From a bacterium (GTDB taxonomy: Bacteria; 4484-113; JAFGCY01), in NCBI GenBank assembly GCA_020849855.1, contig JADZFO010000038.1:108010-172009 (forward strand): a DNA stretch of 64,000 bases, in the 5' to 3' direction. Shown here in pieces: positions 2,883-48,836 of the stretch. The first letter of the stretch is position 1; every line of letters begins with the position of its first letter. The notes under the pieces were generated by a model. It had not been told where the DNA came from and did not search any database. It saw only the letters and a list, made by a program, of their open reading frames with translations. A program made the translations under genes and the position numbers.

Positions 2883-3428
2883 ATGAGTATCGCAACTTCG
2901 CTGGAAAAGCTGATCCGCGAGTGCACCGCCCGCAGCCTCTGGCCGCTGACCCTGGGCCTGGACTATGCAACCCTCGAGATCTTCTCTGCCATCGGCCCGC
3001 AGTACGACATTGCGCGCCTGGGCAGCGAGGTGATGCGCCCCAGCCCGCGGCAGGTGGACCTGCTGATCATCGGCGGGGCGGTGACGGCCAAGATGGCGCC
3101 GGTGCTGCGCGGCCTGTATGAAAGCATGGCCGAGCCGCGCTTTGTGATGGCGCTGGGCAACGGGGCGATCAGCGGCGCGCCCTACAGCGGCAGCTACAAC
3201 GTGCTGCCGGGCATCGACGGGCTCCTGCCGGTGGACATCTTTGTGCCCGGCGACCCGCCGCGGCCGCAGCAGATCATGGAAGCGATCCTGCAGCTTGGCG
3301 AGGCCATCGCCAGCGGGAAGGCCCGCGGCGCGCAGAGCCTGGGCCGCTACCACCCCGAGCGCCTGGCCTACCTGCCGGCCGCGATGGTGGCGGGCAACAT
3401 CTGGCCGGAGGAAGACAATGCTTCCTGA
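2883..3428 (+). CDS. NuoB/Nqo6-like (NiFe-hydrogenase small-subunit fold) protein LACKING all four Fe-S cluster N2 cysteines
   Basis: 181 aa; clear NuoB backbone (WPLT.GL...RxGxEVxRxSPRQxD..I..G.VT.KMAP.L...Y..M.EP..V...G..A.SG.PY..SY.V..G.D...PVD..VPG.PPRP). The canonical CC is DY here (GLDYATLE), GACA is GNGA, and PGCPP is PGDPP. Confidence 0.85.
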   Translation: MSIATSLEKLIRECTARSLWPLTLGLDYATLEIFSAIGPQYDIARLGSEVMRPSPRQVDLLIIGGAVTAKMAPVLRGLYESMAEPRFVMALGNGAISGAPYSGSYNVLPGIDGLLPVDIFVPGDPPRPQQIMEAILQLGEAIASGKARGAQSLGRYHPERLAYLPAAMVAGNIWPEEDNAS

Positions 3429-4377
3429 GGCCGCGCTGAGTCTGCTGCGCGAGGTCAGTGAAGCCCACGGCGGCTGCCTGCTGATTGATGGCCGGCGCGG
3501 CCGCGCGCTGCTGTCGGATACCGCACGCCTGCTGGATGTGTGCAAGGGCCTGCGCCGCGGCGGCTTCACCCGCGCGATTGATTTCACAGCGATGCATGTA
3601 GGGGCGAGTCTTGACTCGCCCTCTTCAACAATGCGAGCATCAGGGAAGGCGGGTCAAGACCCGCCCCTACAGAATCAGGCGGGTCAAGACCCGCCCCTAC
3701 AGAATCAGGCGGGCCAGGACCCGCCACTACAGAATCAGGCAGGTCAGGACCCGCCACTACAGGAAGCGGCGGGCACAGAGGCCCGTTCCACCGAAGACGG
3801 GCCGAGACAAGCTCGGCCCCTACAAAACGACTTCGCCTTCTTCCTGCAGCTGCGGGCGCCGAAGTTCGGGCACAGCGGCATTCTGCTGAAATGGAAGTGG
3901 AGCCTGATTGAGCAGGCCCACCCGAGCCTGAGCCTGGTCTGGGCCTCCTGCGGCCTGGCCGAGCGCGAGATGCTGGAGATGCTGGGCGTCCCCTTCGCCG
4001 GGAATCCCGACCTGCGCCCGCTGCTGCTGGACATGCGCTTCGCCGGCCATCCCCTGCGCCGCGATTTCAAGAGCCCGCCGCCCCAGGACTACGCCAGCGC
4101 CCTGCTGGCGGACCGGCATGAGGCCGGGCTGATCTTTGGCCTGCGGCAGGCGGCGGAGAACAGGGGCACAACTCGGCCCTCAGGTTCCGCTTCCGACAAT
4201 ACAGGCGCATCGACTTCGCTCGACAGTCCCGCGTCCCGAGTCCTGAGTCCTGACGCACAAAAGCGCTCCGCCGAGGCAATGGACTACAGCGCAGAGCTGG
4301 GTATAGGCGAGAAGGGACTCAGGACCCAGGACTCAGGACAGCCCGGAAGCAGCGCGACGGAGGGCACAGCACCATGA
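3418..4377 (+). CDS. NuoC/Nqo5-like (30 kDa subunit) protein with an in-frame repeat insertion (4x GQDPPLQNQA) and a low-complexity C-terminal tail
   Basis: ORF track gives 3241..4377, but its 5' part overlaps nuoB in another frame. Start set at ATG 3418 (MLPEAALSLL), overlapping the nuoB stop. NuoC C-terminal signature W.SL...W.S..W.EREM.EM.GV.F.G.PDLR.LL......GHPLRRDF is present. An inserted segment is encoded by palindromic DNA repeats. Confidence 0.75.
   Translation: MLPEAALSLLREVSEAHGGCLLIDGRRGRALLSDTARLLDVCKGLRRGGFTRAIDFTAMHVGASLDSPSSTMRASGKAGQDPPLQNQAGQDPPLQNQAGQDPPLQNQAGQDPPLQEAAGTEARSTEDGPRQARPLQNDFAFFLQLRAPKFGHSGILLKWKWSLIEQAHPSLSLVWASCGLAEREMLEMLGVPFAGNPDLRPLLLDMRFAGHPLRRDFKSPPPQDYASALLADRHEAGLIFGLRQAAENRGTTRPSGSASDNTGASTSLDSPASRVLSPDAQKRSAEAMDYSAELGIGEKGLRTQDSGQPGSSATEGTAP
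3599..3780. repeat. in-frame palindromic repeat block: GGGGCGAGTCTTGACTCGCCC followed by 4 tandem ~30-bp units each containing the hairpin GGCGGGTC-AA-GACCCGCC
   Basis: Seen directly in the DNA. It is translated within the nuoC-like ORF as VGASLDSP...(AGQDPPLQNQ)x4. The same units recur in the nuoD-like gene, metG and aacS. Confidence 0.8.
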
Positions 4378-5606
4378 CGCTCTCCTCAATCCGCCGCGTT
4401 GAAAAGAGATACGACCCGCTGCTGACCGAGACCATCGTGGTCTCCGTCGGACCGCAGCACCCCTCCCTGGTCAGCCCGGTGCAGCTGCACATCCAGGCCG
4501 ACGGTGAGCTGATCGAGCGCGTCACCGTCGAGCAGGGATTCATGCACCGCGGCATCGAGATGCTGTGCAGCCAGCGCGACTGGGCCGGCTGCGCCGCGCT
4601 GCTTTCCCGCACTGAATGGCTGGCCGGGATGAACGGCCACTTCCTGCTGAGCAGCGCCATCGAGGAGCTTTCCGGCCTTGAAGTGCCGCAGCGCGCCCAG
4701 TTCCTGCGCAGCCTGGTGCTGGAGCTGGGGCGCCTGAGCAGCCACCTGTACTGGTTTGGCGACCTGGGCCTGGAGGTTGGCGCGGTGACGCCGGTCTTCT
4801 GGGCCATGCGCGAGCGCGAGCCGCTGCTGGAGCTGCTGGACATGCTTTCCGGCCACCGCTGGCACGGGGCCTACATCGTCCCAGGCGGGGTCAGCCATGA
4901 GCCGCCGGCGGCCTTCTATCAGCGCCTGCGCGCCTGGCTGCCCCTGATGCGCCGGCGGATCAACTCCTATGAGGAGTACTTCAGCGATAACGCCATCTGG
5001 GTCAACCGCAGCGAGCTGATCGGCGTGCTGGAAACCGACTACGCAATCAAGAACGGGGCCTCCGGCCCGGTGGCGCGGGCCAGCGCGGTGGACTGCGACC
5101 TGCGCCGCGACGCCCCTTATGCCGCCTACGGCGAGCTGAGCTTCAAGGTGCCGCTGGGCGAGTACGGCGACGCCCTCGACCGCTTCCGCGTCCGCTTTAT
5201 GGAAATGCGCGAAAGCATGAACATGGTCGAGCAGTGCCTGGATGCACTGGCCGGGGCCGAGCTTGGGTCCGCCCGGCTTGTAGGGGCGAGTCTTGACTCG
5301 CCCTCTTTAGCAGCAGGTATACAAGGGAAGGCGGGTCAAGACCCGCCACTACAGAATCAGGCGGGTCAAGACCCGCCCATACAAATCCCCGCCGGCGAGG
5401 CCTTTGTGTCGGTCGAAGGGCCGCGCGGCGAGCTGGCGCTGAGCGTCGTTTCCGACGGCGGGCACGGCCCGGCCCGTGTGCACCTGCGCGGGCCGAGCAT
5501 GTACCACCTGCACCTGCTGGACGAGCTTTGCCGCGGCTATCTGCTGGCCGACCTCTTCGTTATCTATGCCAGCCTCGACATCATGGTTGGGGAGGCGGAC
5601 CGATGA
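4374..5606 (+). CDS. NuoD/Nqo4-like (NiFe-hydrogenase large-subunit fold) protein without NiFe cysteines and without the conserved quinone-site His; carries an in-frame palindromic insertion
   Basis: 410 aa; ATGA overlap with nuoC. N-terminal GPQHPS...HRGIE (NuoD-like HRGxEK region) with no RxCGxC. C-terminal SLDIMVGEADR resembles the NuoD end SLDIVFGEVDR, not the hydrogenase DPCxxCxxH. The usual NFGPQHPAAHGVLRL is GPQHPSLVSPVQL (His absent). Insertion ...VGASLDSPSLAAGIQGKAGQDPPLQNQAGQDPPIQ.. at nt 5276-5395. Confidence 0.85.
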   Translation: MTLSSIRRVEKRYDPLLTETIVVSVGPQHPSLVSPVQLHIQADGELIERVTVEQGFMHRGIEMLCSQRDWAGCAALLSRTEWLAGMNGHFLLSSAIEELSGLEVPQRAQFLRSLVLELGRLSSHLYWFGDLGLEVGAVTPVFWAMREREPLLELLDMLSGHRWHGAYIVPGGVSHEPPAAFYQRLRAWLPLMRRRINSYEEYFSDNAIWVNRSELIGVLETDYAIKNGASGPVARASAVDCDLRRDAPYAAYGELSFKVPLGEYGDALDRFRVRFMEMRESMNMVEQCLDALAGAELGSARLVGASLDSPSLAAGIQGKAGQDPPLQNQAGQDPPIQIPAGEAFVSVEGPRGELALSVVSDGGHGPARVHLRGPSMYHLHLLDELCRGYLLADLFVIYASLDIMVGEADR

Positions 5607-5611
5607 GAGAG

Positions 5612-5782
5612 ATGGCTAATGGCAAATGGCTAATGGCTAATGGAGAAGACTGCCGACAAGATGTCGGCGCTCCGTTCGAGACCATCGACGGCGCAATTTG
5701 CCTACCTCCATTTGCCTTTTGCCTTTCCGGGCGCACTCTGTGCGCCCCTACATTAGCCATTAGCCATTCGACATTAGCCATG
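5612..5782. repeat. inverted-repeat (MITE/REP-like) element: ATGGCTAATGGCAAATGGCTAATGGCTAATGG ... CATTAGCCATTAGCCATTCGACATTAGCCAT, containing the REP-like palindrome GGGCGCACTCTGTGCGCCC
   Basis: Direct inspection of the 196-bp gap between the nuoD-like gene and the next gene. The internal palindrome recurs at 53958..54016. A related ATGGCTAATGG fragment is at 10860..10960. Confidence 0.55.
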
Positions 5783-5802: not shown

Positions 5803-6339
5803 GTGAGCATCAACCGCTTTGACAAGTACAAGAACGAGGTGCCGACCGAGGCCGAGCTGGCCGCGCCGAAGTTCCAGGCGGACTTCACACGCCCGCTGCT
5901 GCAGCGGGTCTGGGCCTATTACATGTGGCGCCTGCTGGCGCTGCTGATGTCCATTGCCTGCTTTGTCTGGTATGGCTACTGGTCCGGCAAGGCGGCGATG
6001 GTGGCGCGGGACGACTACCCGAACCTTTACGTTGAGATCAACAATTACCTGGCCAGCCCCTTCAACCACTACTTCGTGGCGCTTTGCGGGATCCTGCTGC
6101 TGGCGATGGCCTTCAGCCCCCTGGGCCTGCGCGGCATGGCCATGCTGGGCAACTGGCAGCTGCTGGTGATCGCCTACTGGGGCGCGCTGGTGGTCTTCCT
6201 GGTCCTGAAGCTGACCGAGCATGTCATCGACTTCGAGGCGCCCTCGGCGCTGAAGGCGGTCTTTTACCCTTATGTGCTGGTGGCCATCGCCCTGAGCTTC
6301 ATGGAGCTGCGCTCGCTGGAAGAAGAGGTGGCCTCATGA
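5803..6339 (+). CDS. hypothetical integral membrane protein (about 4 TM helices) encoded inside the complex-I-like operon
   Basis: 178-aa ORF with hydrophobic segments (LLALLMSIACFVWYGYW, FVALCGILLLAMAF, LLVIAYWGALVVFLVL, YVLVAIALSF). No similarity to a known Nuo subunit recognised. Confidence 0.45.
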   Translation: MSINRFDKYKNEVPTEAELAAPKFQADFTRPLLQRVWAYYMWRLLALLMSIACFVWYGYWSGKAAMVARDDYPNLYVEINNYLASPFNHYFVALCGILLLAMAFSPLGLRGMAMLGNWQLLVIAYWGALVVFLVLKLTEHVIDFEAPSALKAVFYPYVLVAIALSFMELRSLEEEVAS

Positions 6340-6480
6340 GGCGATTGCTGATTGCGGATTGCGGATTGCTGATTGCAAAGAGTGCCTCGCAGGGCAGCAG
6401 CACTGTGCTGCTGACTTCCGCGCGGCTCCGGGAAGTCATCAATCATCAATCATCAGTCAGCAATTGCAGCAAGCGAGGTG
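6340..6480. repeat. second copy of the ATTGCTGATTGC-TIR MITE-like element
   Basis: GATTGCTGATTGCGGATTGCGGATTGCTGATTGC ... TCATCAATCATCAATCATCAGTCAGCAATTGC flanks a GC-rich core. Same TIR family as 2668..2878. Confidence 0.5.
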
Positions 6481-6499
6481 CGACATCCTGAGCACACCC

Positions 6500-15682: not shown

Positions 15683-15688
15683 ATAATC
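15683..15688 (+). promoter_or_regulatory. -10 hexamer TATAAT 8 nt upstream of the purN ATG (putative leaderless transcript)
   Basis: CCCTATAATCCCTGCGCCATGG; no SD possible in 8 nt. The pattern recurs at many genes in the window. Confidence 0.4.
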
Positions 15689-15696
15689 CCTGCGCC

Positions 15697-16413
15697 ATGG
15701 ACAGCGTCCACCCCAGCCTGCGCATCGCCGCCCTGATCAGCGGCAGCGGCTCCACCCTGCTGAACATCCTGCAGCGCATCGCGGACGGCCGCCTGCGCGG
15801 CGTGGAGGTTTGCGGCGTGGCGGCCAGCCGGGACTGCCCGGGCCTGGAGCATGCCCGCGCCTTTGGCATCCCCTGGGTGATTGTGCCGCGCACAGCGCCG
15901 CCGGCCGAGGCCCTGCAGCCGGCGGAGGCCAGCGCCTTCACGGCCGCTTTTGACGCCGCCGAGTTCTCAGAGCGCCTGAGCGCCGAGCTGGACCGCTGGC
16001 AGCCGCAGCTGGTGGTCTGCGCCGGCTTCCTGAGCCTTTACCTGCCTGCGCCGCAGTACCGCCACAAAGTGCTGAACGTGCACCCCGCGCTGTTGCCGGC
16101 CTTCGGCGGGCCGGGGATGTATGGGCAGCGTGTCCACGAAGCCGTGCTGGCGAGCGGGGCAAAGGTCAGCGGCTGCACGGTGCACCTGACGGACGAGCAC
16201 TATGACTCCGGGCCGATCATCGCCCAGCGCACTGTGGCCGTCCTGCCGGATGACACGCCGGAGACGCTGTCAGCGCGGGTGCAGGCAGCGGAGAGGGAGC
16301 TGTACCCCCTGGTGCTGCAGGGCTTTGCCGACGGGCGCATCCGCATCAGTGCGGAGGGCGCGGTGGAGCTGGACCCGCGGGTGCTGACGCAGGAGCCGGG
16401 TGGCGCGGGCTGA
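15697..16413 (+). CDS. purN: phosphoribosylglycinamide formyltransferase
   Basis: 238 aa; N-terminal AALISGSGSTL (GSGSNL-type), HPALLPAFGG (NIHPSLLP-type catalytic His region), and a C-terminal D...L fold typical of PurN. Confidence 0.8.
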   Translation: MDSVHPSLRIAALISGSGSTLLNILQRIADGRLRGVEVCGVAASRDCPGLEHARAFGIPWVIVPRTAPPAEALQPAEASAFTAAFDAAEFSERLSAELDRWQPQLVVCAGFLSLYLPAPQYRHKVLNVHPALLPAFGGPGMYGQRVHEAVLASGAKVSGCTVHLTDEHYDSGPIIAQRTVAVLPDDTPETLSARVQAAERELYPLVLQGFADGRIRISAEGAVELDPRVLTQEPGGAG

Positions 16414-21930: not shown

Positions 21931-22446
21931 ATGCTCGACAAACAGAAACTGGCACAGGCGCTGGAGACCCTGCGCTCCGGAATTTTCGTGGTGACGAGCC
22001 AGGATGCCGGCAAGGCCGCCGGCTGTACGGCGGTCTGGGTCACGCGGGCTTCATTCAATCCGCCGCTGCTGTGCGTGACACTTTCGCCCACGCGGCACAC
22101 TTTCTCAGTGCTGCAGGCAGCGGGGAAGTTCTGCATCAATGTGCTGGGCGAAAGCAGCCTTGATGTGGCCCGCCGCTTCGGCTTCAACACGGGGCCGGAG
22201 AGCGGCAAATTTGACCAGGTGCCGAGCCACCTGGGCGAGAACGGCATGCCGATCCTTGACAACGCCGTGGCCTGGTTTGAATGCCGGGTCAGCCAGGTTC
22301 TGGAGGTTGGCGACCACCGCCTGGTGATCGGCGAGGTGCTGGCCTCAGCGCTGCAGAGCAATGAGGCGCCGGCGGTGTATGTGGCGGAGTCCTTCTACAG
22401 CGAAAGCCAGAATCAGGTCCGGGCCGGCGGCGGTTCCGGGGACTAG
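21931..22446 (+). CDS. flavin reductase-like (FMN-binding split-barrel) domain protein
   Basis: 171 aa; pattern FVVTS..G...G.T..W......PPLL.V.L......F.V.Q....F.INVL.......A..F typical of the HpaC/flavin reductase family. SD GAGGGGG upstream. Confidence 0.7.
   Translation: MLDKQKLAQALETLRSGIFVVTSQDAGKAAGCTAVWVTRASFNPPLLCVTLSPTRHTFSVLQAAGKFCINVLGESSLDVARRFGFNTGPESGKFDQVPSHLGENGMPILDNAVAWFECRVSQVLEVGDHRLVIGEVLASALQSNEAPAVYVAESFYSESQNQVRAGGGSGD

Positions 22447-46505: not shown

Positions 46506-48836
<2,331 letters not shown>

Follow-up and report, generated by a model that had tools for sequence, protein, structure and literature searches.

The window analysed here, a 64,000-nt stretch of contig JADZFO010000038.1 (assembly GCA_020849855.1) from a bacterium of the GTDB lineage 4484-113; JAFGCY01, carries an operon of nuo-type genes whose NuoB homologue has none of the cysteines that bind iron-sulfur cluster N2. 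Judged from the sequences, the operon encodes a ten-subunit derivative of respiratory complex I (NuoA, B, C, D, H, I*, J, K, L and M, NuoI* being a fusion of NuoI to a membrane domain) together with small lineage-specific membrane proteins. The whole electron path has been lost, namely the input module from the operon, the cysteines for clusters N6a, N6b and N2, and the His and Tyr that bind quinone. The complex very probably does no redox chemistry and is a redox-dead derivative of complex I. That it now serves as a secondary cation/proton translocator completes the best explanation found, which, taken as a whole, we hold with belief and doubt about equally balanced. The loss of ligands extends from the one subunit, NuoB, to the electron path of the entire complex.

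The 181 amino acid (aa) product of the nuoB homologue passes the family cut-offs of Pfam PF01058 Oxidored_q6 (E 3.9e-18, 65.9 bits against a cut-off of 27), NCBIfam NF005012 (159.5 bits, cut-off 116) and TIGR01957 (151.5 bits, cut-off 142.7), and its gene is sited between nuoA and nuoC/D. Among solved structures 43 distinct chains are matched, those of complex I (NuoB/Nqo6/PSST) at E 2e-36 to 5e-29 and hydrogenase-type small subunits more weakly (Mbs 6u8y_J 4.8e-21, MbhJ 2.6e-18, HycG 5.7e-17). The ligand register was taken from HMMER alignment of the open reading frame (ORF) to T. thermophilus Nqo6 and M. smegmatis NuoB, and the alignment is free of gaps over all three N2 ligand motifs. In the first motif, canonical FGLACCAIEM stands opposite LGLDYATLEI (ACCA to DYAT); in the second, MGACASSGG opposite LGNGAISGA; in the third, PGCPPRP opposite PGDPPRP. 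None of the four cysteines that hold the N2 [4Fe-4S] cluster (CCxxE ... GxCA ... GCPP) is present, and the only cysteine of the protein, Cys14, is not conserved. A first-pass annotation, made from the letters of the DNA alone, had reported the replacement of all four cysteines and had proposed alignment with Nqo6 as a check; the alignment to solved chains bears this out, with no cysteine at any ligand position. Of the individual changes it listed, GACA to GNGA and PGCPP to PGDPP stand, while CC to DY is one residue off, the cysteine pair corresponding to Tyr28-Ala29. Its placing of Asp at two former cysteine positions needs correction as well, as only Asp124 replaces a cysteine and Asp27 merely adjoins one. 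Retention of the NuoB fold is well supported by the sequence matches and modestly by modelling: the AlphaFold model has a moderate mean confidence score (pLDDT 69.6), and its core fits PSST/NuoB at about 3.4 Å across 91-95 residues.

The substitutions are a fixed property of a protein family. A homologue search for the NuoB ORF over 5.8 billion proteins returned 30 further homologue clusters (54-99% identity; P0001-P0030 are listed at 57-99%), and the pattern DY(A/S/T) / G-x-G-A / PGDPP is found in 30/30 of these, so that with the window included the loss of N2 ligands is fixed in 31/31 variant members. Many of them have no cysteine at all. Canonical NuoB proteins are sharply separated, at about 50% identity or less to the window ORF and all with four cysteines. 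All three cysteine motifs are encoded by 77 of 78 canonical nuoB genes taken from other genomes, and the substitutions in the window ORF are therefore not ordinary variation. When genome contigs were scanned with a profile of the variant NuoB, nearly all matches were canonical, and only two loci (L005 and L042) belonged to the family. One further sequence, P0031 from a 503-bp ENA contig, retains the tandem CC, whereas its other two motifs are of the variant type (GSGAISGAP and PGDPP); either the assembly has produced a chimera or this is a true intermediate in the loss of N2.

The variant nuoB is under purifying selection. Its ratio of nonsynonymous to synonymous substitution rates (dN/dS) is 0.25 between the window and the closest relative, locus L002 (GCA_964512635.1), at 85% amino-acid identity. 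The other nine operon genes with a true counterpart in L002 give values of 0.06-0.31, with nuoK at 0.06. Only the window-L002 pair was used, and nuoM is left out of it because L002 ends before that gene; for the more distant loci L001 and L005 the ratio is unreliable owing to saturated synonymous sites and strong codon bias. No frameshifts are found, and more than six loci share the order of the genes. The first-pass annotation had read the gene as a NuoB scaffold retained after loss of redox function, had asked whether the substitutions recur in homologues and had named decay to a pseudogene as the alternative. Its core reading is supported by the conservation across about 30 clusters, by the selection on nuoB and by the loss of ligands from NuoI and NuoD as well, and it understates the case.

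The upstream clusters of the canonical electron wire also lack their ligands. The product of the gene between the nuoH and nuoJ homologues is 339 aa long and 100% identical to the NCBI entry 'hypothetical protein IT575_09860 [bacterium]'. It consists of an N-terminal helical membrane domain of about 195 aa and a NuoI-like domain at residues ~195-330; an AlphaFold2 model (pLDDT 85.8) likewise begins with a helical membrane domain and ends in an alpha/beta domain. No Pfam or NCBIfam model matches its family of 46 aligned sequences. Profile-profile comparison with 12 canonical NuoI sequences gives a probability of 94% (E 1.3e-7), and in it residues 195-330 span practically all of NuoI, with the YP..(L)P..(Y/F)RG motif among the aligned parts. 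Both CxxCxxCxxxCP motifs, which would hold N6a and N6b, are gone with all eight of their cysteines. The NuoI-like domain has no conserved cysteine column among the 46 sequences and no cysteine whatever in the window protein. N6a, N6b and N2 have thus all disappeared, while their protein scaffolds remain. In the membrane domain a DPLDxIH motif is found, of which Asp121, Asp124 and His127 are invariant or nearly so.

At the far end of the path the quinone site of NuoD is altered. The NuoD ORF matches complex I chains best (E 1e-56 to 3.5e-75); Mbs 6u8y_L scores 5.4e-64, MbhL 1e-35 and HycE 1e-24. In a comparison of six variant with 67 canonical sequences, 55 of the 86 canonical-invariant columns are retained in the variants. 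The residues at Nqo4 His38 and Tyr87 (T. thermophilus numbering), which we take from the established T. thermophilus and Y. lipolytica structures to be the ligands of the quinone head group, are His and Tyr in 67/67 canonical sequences. In the variants the His is replaced by V, P or A, and the Tyr by Trp in 6/6; the window protein has Val33 and Trp82. The beta1-beta2 loop T-H-G-V-x-R has become L-x-x-P, and Nqo4 Asp139 is represented by Glu134. Two histidines, His161 and His164, are invariant in the six variants and absent from all 67 canonical sequences. His164 falls, by the constant +5 offset of the alignment to PDB chains, at the position of Nqo4 His169, which adjoins N2. Residues that line the quinone cavity in the neighbouring subunits are altered together with the NuoD ligands: in NuoA the Cys of the cavity loop has become Ser46 and Trp55 and Tyr65 have become Leu, and in NuoH Trp356 is Tyr, Gln373 is Met and one loop Glu is Ser or Gln.

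The membrane arm, by comparison, is well preserved in the residues that move protons. NuoK retains 11/11 canonical-invariant columns, both membrane glutamates included. NuoH retains 46/55, including nearly all charged residues, and NuoA keeps its conserved Glu. The carboxylates of the E-channel (NuoH, A and K) are thus in place, as are the Lys/Glu/His chains of the antiporter-like subunits. NuoL retains the Glu of transmembrane helix (TM) 5, the TM7 Lys, the His/Lys of HAxxKA, the TM12 Lys-Asp pair and the C-terminal lateral-helix region, and NuoM keeps Glu in TM5, Lys in both TM7 and TM8, its key His, and Glu in TM12. The best solved match of NuoM is NdhD3 of NDH-1MS, by a small margin. There are two antiporter-like subunits in place of the usual three (NuoL, M and N): two PF00361-type genes only are present, and no third such gene was found by tblastn in the 64-kb window. 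NuoH is about 600 aa long against a normal ~330-350; the added segments lie at the N-terminus, in the interior and at the C-terminus, and family members share them.

Relatives of the operon were sought with a profile of the NuoI fusion among 1.84 billion representative proteins, which gave 27 matches. In five of them (P0136, P0139, P0141, P0144 and P0146) the N-terminal membrane domain of the fusion is joined to a canonical NuoI that has kept its two CxxCxxCxxxCP motifs. In another, P0143, one motif is gone and the other is reduced to CxxCxxC (CYFCGLC). The loci of P0139 (L091) and P0143 (L088) define two lineages that share the ten-gene layout with the window clade. In L091 the cysteines of NuoB are intact (CC / C / C), as are the His, Tyr, Asp and Arg of NuoD. 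In L088 NuoB has SE / G / S at these positions and no cysteine, and in NuoD the His has become Trp and the Tyr Ile. The window clade has YA / G / D in NuoB, and in NuoD V, P or A for the His and Trp for the Tyr. L088 (positions 6045-15753 of its locus, ENA ERZ27262642) thus represents a second cofactor-free lineage, to which L089 and L090 also belong. Neighbour joining on NuoA+D+H+K (835 columns, 48 taxa, 200 bootstraps) groups the three ten-gene lineages apart from 41 canonical enzymes with 99.5% bootstrap support. L091, the redox-competent lineage, comes out as the sister of the variant clade (96%), and L088 lies outside. Because the topology is (L088,(L091,variant clade)) and it is implausible that some 14 ligands were regained, two independent losses of the electron path are probable.

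Compared with canonical complex I (NuoA-N; Nqo1-14 of T. thermophilus, Nuo of E. coli), the complex has homologous A, B, C, D, H, I, J, K, L and M subunits in the canonical order, its best solved matches (NuoB E 2e-36, NuoD E 3.5e-75), and the residues of the E-channel and antiporter-like subunits. It differs in having no NuoEFG or NuoN in the operon, no ligands for N2, N6a or N6b and no quinone His/Tyr, and in its fused NuoI, its NuoH of about twice the length and its extra small membrane proteins. A close likeness is to the L091/L092 sister lineage, which has the order A-B-C-D-H-(membrane domain + NuoI)-J-K-L-M and two antiporter-like subunits and joins the window clade with the bootstrap support given above. 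The sister complex keeps NuoB CC/C/C, the two CxxCxxCxxxCP motifs of NuoI and the His/Tyr/Asp of NuoD, and from these residues it is presumably a working oxidoreductase. As far as could be found, this ten-gene lineage is itself undescribed. No description of a complex I or NuoB lacking N2 or its iron-sulfur clusters was met in the searchable literature, which includes the phylogenomic survey of Spero et al. 2015 and covers few of the subscription journals.

Ehr, Mbx/Mbs and the group 4 [NiFe]-hydrogenase branch resemble the complex in that they are built of modules of the complex I superfamily whose catalytic site is changed or absent, and in their largely unknown function (PMC6349859, PMC10284858). 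In Ehr it is the NiFe cysteines that are lost, from a large subunit of hydrogenase type near the group 4f hydrogenases (PMC6349859, PMC10284858). Membership in Ehr was considered and rejected, as the subunits here are of complex I type: NuoB and NuoD are closer to complex I than to Mbh or formate hydrogenlyase (FHL) chains, with Mbs scoring nearer (these chains stood in for Ehr, of which no sequence was available), and the operon has NuoA, NuoJ, NuoK and a long NuoL. With Mrp, a redox-free relative of complex I with two antiporter-like subunits (PMC7419157), the complex shares the absence of redox cofactors and the combination of NuoL-like, NuoM/N-like and NuoK-like subunits (PMC7419157). NuoH, NuoA and the four-subunit cytoplasmic cap set it apart from Mrp, and no Pfam or NCBIfam model of MrpB, E, F or G matches any accessory ORF of the operon. 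Deactive mammalian complex I acts as a Na+/H+ antiporter, its membrane domain being disconnected from the redox domain (PMC3464577), and is in this way similar to what is proposed here. The deactive form can be reversed and belongs to an enzyme with its full set of cofactors, whereas uncoupling in the present complex would be permanent and encoded in the genes.

To the absence of ligands, the retained membrane-arm residues, the conservation in the family and the selection on it, all of which are observed, a tentative mechanism can be added. The membrane arm would act as a secondary cation/proton translocator, carrying ions down or against their gradients, and the cofactor-free B-C-D-I cap as a structural lid or gate over the entrance from NuoH/NuoA to the E-channel. 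Polar residues peculiar to this clade, namely Asp27, Tyr28 and Asp124 in NuoB with His161 and His164 in NuoD, gather at the former N2 site and may occupy the cavity, hold a cation or serve as a protonatable gate. The part of NuoB with Asp27, Tyr28 and Asp124, facing NuoD His164, is thus a candidate for gating or cation binding, which revises the suggestion of the first-pass annotation that the Asp residues could bind a cation. That a complex I stripped twice of its cofactors has been left with a quinone-binding module (Q-module) that gates, or senses a ligand or cation, in the control of an ion translocator is a proposal to which we give slightly less than even credence. A specifically Mrp-like cation/proton translocator, proposed by analogy, is a little less probable again. 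The origin of three relatives (L042, L086 and L087) from saline activated sludge, by their record names and PMC8495973, is weak circumstantial evidence in favour of an ion-exchange role.

Several points weigh against a secondary translocator of this kind and its history. No sequence signature for Na+ selectivity was found in the complex. The selected four-subunit cytoplasmic cap is unexplained for a secondary transporter and may have acquired a new ligand or partner. The HxWLPDAM motif of NuoL (residues ~250-262) has degenerated to CFWLSGAM; it reads SFWLPDAM in L001, TGWLARAM in L088 and the canonical HVWLPDAM in the redox-competent L091, so that its His is lost in both cofactor-free lineages. 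A conserved loop Glu of NuoH is lost as well, and with the decay of the NuoL motif this means that the membrane arm is not wholly canonical. In the window a toxin-antitoxin pair stands in place of the small membrane-protein gene of the relatives. The topology that implies two losses is that of a simple distance tree.

Other functions can be proposed for a complex without cofactors. The membrane-domain DPLDxIH motif of the NuoI fusion, the doubled NuoH and the small membrane proteins could together be the working module of a conformational machine, driven by the proton-motive force (pmf), for other chemistry or transport, be it the vectorial hydration of CO2 known from DAB and cyanobacterial NDH-1MS or the movement of another substrate. 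Both the extra membrane domain and the accessory proteins show conservation across the family, with Asp121, Asp124 and His127 among the best conserved residues, the NdhD3 match of NuoM points the same way, and the retained cap suits such a machine better than it suits a plain antiporter. We nevertheless regard it as unlikely, since no carbonic-anhydrase-like, CupA or DabA domain was detected, the accessory proteins matching no Pfam or NCBIfam model. Moreover, the membrane domain is already fused to NuoI in the redox-competent sister lineage, where His127 is not conserved, and the small accessory genes vary between genomes. An equally doubtful possibility is that the complex is a regulator, a sensor of pmf or pH, an assembly scaffold or a supercomplex partner, or that it borrows NuoN and NuoEFG from a canonical complex I elsewhere. 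NuoN and NuoEFG are indeed missing from the operon, the cap is kept without its cofactors, and c-type cytochrome genes nearby indicate that respiration probably proceeds by other means. Borrowed input modules would find no wire to feed in the complex's own cofactor-free NuoB, NuoD and NuoI, however, and the redox-competent sister also lacks NuoN and NuoEFG in its operon, which makes the ten-gene set look self-sufficient. The strong conservation of proton-path residues points instead to real movement of ions.

Redox activity through a cofactor held without cysteines, for example a mononuclear metal or a cluster bound through NuoB Asp27 and Asp124 together with NuoD His161 and His164, would account for the carboxylates and histidines that surround the former N2 site in this clade. 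Asp27 and Asp124 are invariant in 31/31 variant NuoB sequences, His161 and His164 occur in 6/6 variant and 0/67 canonical NuoD sequences, and His164 lies at Nqo4 His169. It is nonetheless improbable: such a cofactor would have neither an upstream wire, the NuoI domain being without cysteines, nor an acceptor site, the quinone His and Tyr being gone, and the independently degenerate L088 has other residues (SE/G/S) and no His pair. Least probable by far is a decaying relic, a cluster of pseudogenes, and it was rejected. Every catalytic ligand is lost, and a toxin-antitoxin insertion and in-frame repeat expansions are found inside the operon, as decay would have it. Against this, none of the ten nuo-type genes is broken and several overlap the next one at the stop codon, identical substitutions are present in about 30 clusters down to 54% identity, and dN/dS lies throughout at the low values reported above. 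More than six distinct genomes, a complete one of 4.1 Mb among them, have the genes in this order, and the functional residues of the membrane arm are invariant.

The central unsolved problem of complex I is how what happens at the quinone site can power proton pumps as far as 200 Å away. The redox-dead complex offers a natural test of this coupling, in which evolution has deleted the redox chemistry while the coupling hardware (the loops of NuoH, NuoA and NuoD, the E-channel and the antiporter-like subunits) is still under selection, and the redox-competent sister complex of the same architecture is a direct partner for comparison. The accepted evolutionary path leads from Mrp-like antiporters to complex I. 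If the translocator reading is true, that path has been reversed, apparently twice, back towards an Mrp-like state, and the Q-module has a role that is independent of redox chemistry. There is also a hazard for annotation. The cofactor-free NuoB and NuoD are publicly named 'NADH-quinone oxidoreductase subunit B/D' because they pass the curated NCBIfam cut-offs in spite of their lost ligands, and automated metabolic reconstructions would wrongly credit these genomes with a working complex I.

The order of the operon is nuoA-B-C-D-x-H-(toxin/antitoxin)-I*-J-K-L-M, followed by purN (Table 1). The same order recurs in L001 (a 2.7-Mb contig), L002 and L085 (the complete 4.1-Mb genome CP060262.1), and also in two GTDB species representatives, L005 and L042. 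No nuoE, F, G or N was found in the operon of the window or in that of the related loci L001, L002, L005, L085, L088 and L091; for nuoE, F and G the comparison took in seven related loci.

Table 1. Genes of the operon and ligand positions in NuoB and NuoD, in window coordinates
Feature	Position	Strand	Basis
nuoA homologue, 132 aa	2264..2662	+	PF00507 E 2.5e-28
nuoB homologue without N2 ligands, 181 aa	2883..3428	+	Pfam, NCBIfam, solved-chain matches
NuoB, Nqo6 Ala44 to Asp27	2961-2963	+	alignment
NuoB, Nqo6 Cys45 to Tyr28	2964-2966	+	alignment
NuoB, Nqo6 Cys46 to Ala29	2967-2969	+	alignment
NuoB, Nqo6 Cys111 to Gly94	3162-3164	+	alignment
NuoB, Nqo6 Cys140 to Asp124	3252-3254	+	alignment
nuoC homologue, 319 aa; start overlaps nuoB stop	3418..4377	+	PF00329 E 6.3e-17
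nuoD homologue without quinone head-group ligands, 410 aa	4374..5606	+	PF00346 E 1.1e-76
NuoD, Nqo4 His38 to Val33	4470-4472	+	alignment
NuoD, Nqo4 Tyr87 to Trp82	4617-4619	+	alignment
Predicted membrane protein, 178 aa, no family match	5803..6339	+	library scan, locus comparison
nuoH homologue, longest ORF 651 aa	6359..8314	+	PF00146 E 8.9e-97
MntA (nucleotidyltransferase)	8311-8607	+	PF01909 E 2.7e-13
HepT (HEPN RNase)	8604-8942	+	PF01934 E 1.9e-24
NuoI-membrane-domain fusion, 339 aa, deposited as 'hypothetical protein'	8939..9958	+	profile-profile comparison
nuoJ homologue, 301 aa, N-terminal extension	9955..10860	+	PF00499 E 8.6e-35
nuoK homologue, 169 aa, N-terminal extension	10974..11483	+	PF00420 E 4.5e-26
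nuoL homologue, 744 aa, C-terminal lateral-helix region	11477..13711	+	key-residue comparison, NCBIfam
nuoM-type antiporter-like subunit, 636 aa, last operon gene	13757..15667	+	key-residue comparison, NCBIfam

Among the smaller genes, that for the 178-aa membrane protein has a counterpart, at the matching place in the operon, only in L002 among the fetched loci, and its product is probably an accessory subunit. The MntA/HepT pair is joined to nuoH and to the NuoI fusion by stop/start overlaps. Its place is taken in relatives (L001, L002, L005, L042 and L085) by a gene for a membrane protein of 145-177 aa, no copy of which occurs in the window; the pair is probably an insertion and not a subunit. 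The longest nuoH ORF begins inside heptamer repeats. The alignment with relatives sets in only at residue ~37-50, and translation therefore probably starts at the ATG at ~6497 (605 aa).

Repeats are found within and between the genes of the operon. An in-frame 30-bp tandem repeat of 3.9 copies in nuoC (3647-3762) encodes AGQDPPLQNQ, and a related copy lies in a variable surface loop of nuoD (~5268-5399); a shared 'ASLDSPS' segment precedes the repeat. Both are shorter in L002. One repeat element has expanded in two coding genes, and neither frame is broken. Tandem arrays of 7-bp units (TGCTGAT, CAATCAG, ATGGCTA, CATTAGC, GATTGCG, TCATCAA and others), with 4-5 copies each, are located at 2670-2698, 2835-2867, 4315-4339, 5612-5643, 5751-5781, 6343-6376, 6436-6464, 47457-47485 and 47545-47572. 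Most are in the intergenic spacers of the nuo-like operon, and they are reminiscent of the short tandemly repeated repetitive (STRR) heptamers of cyanobacteria. An Rfam scan of the window gave no match. A few kb downstream of the operon are a c-type cytochrome gene (PF00034; 19856-20503, minus strand) and a flavin reductase gene (21931-22446, plus strand), and the organism probably has other respiratory components.

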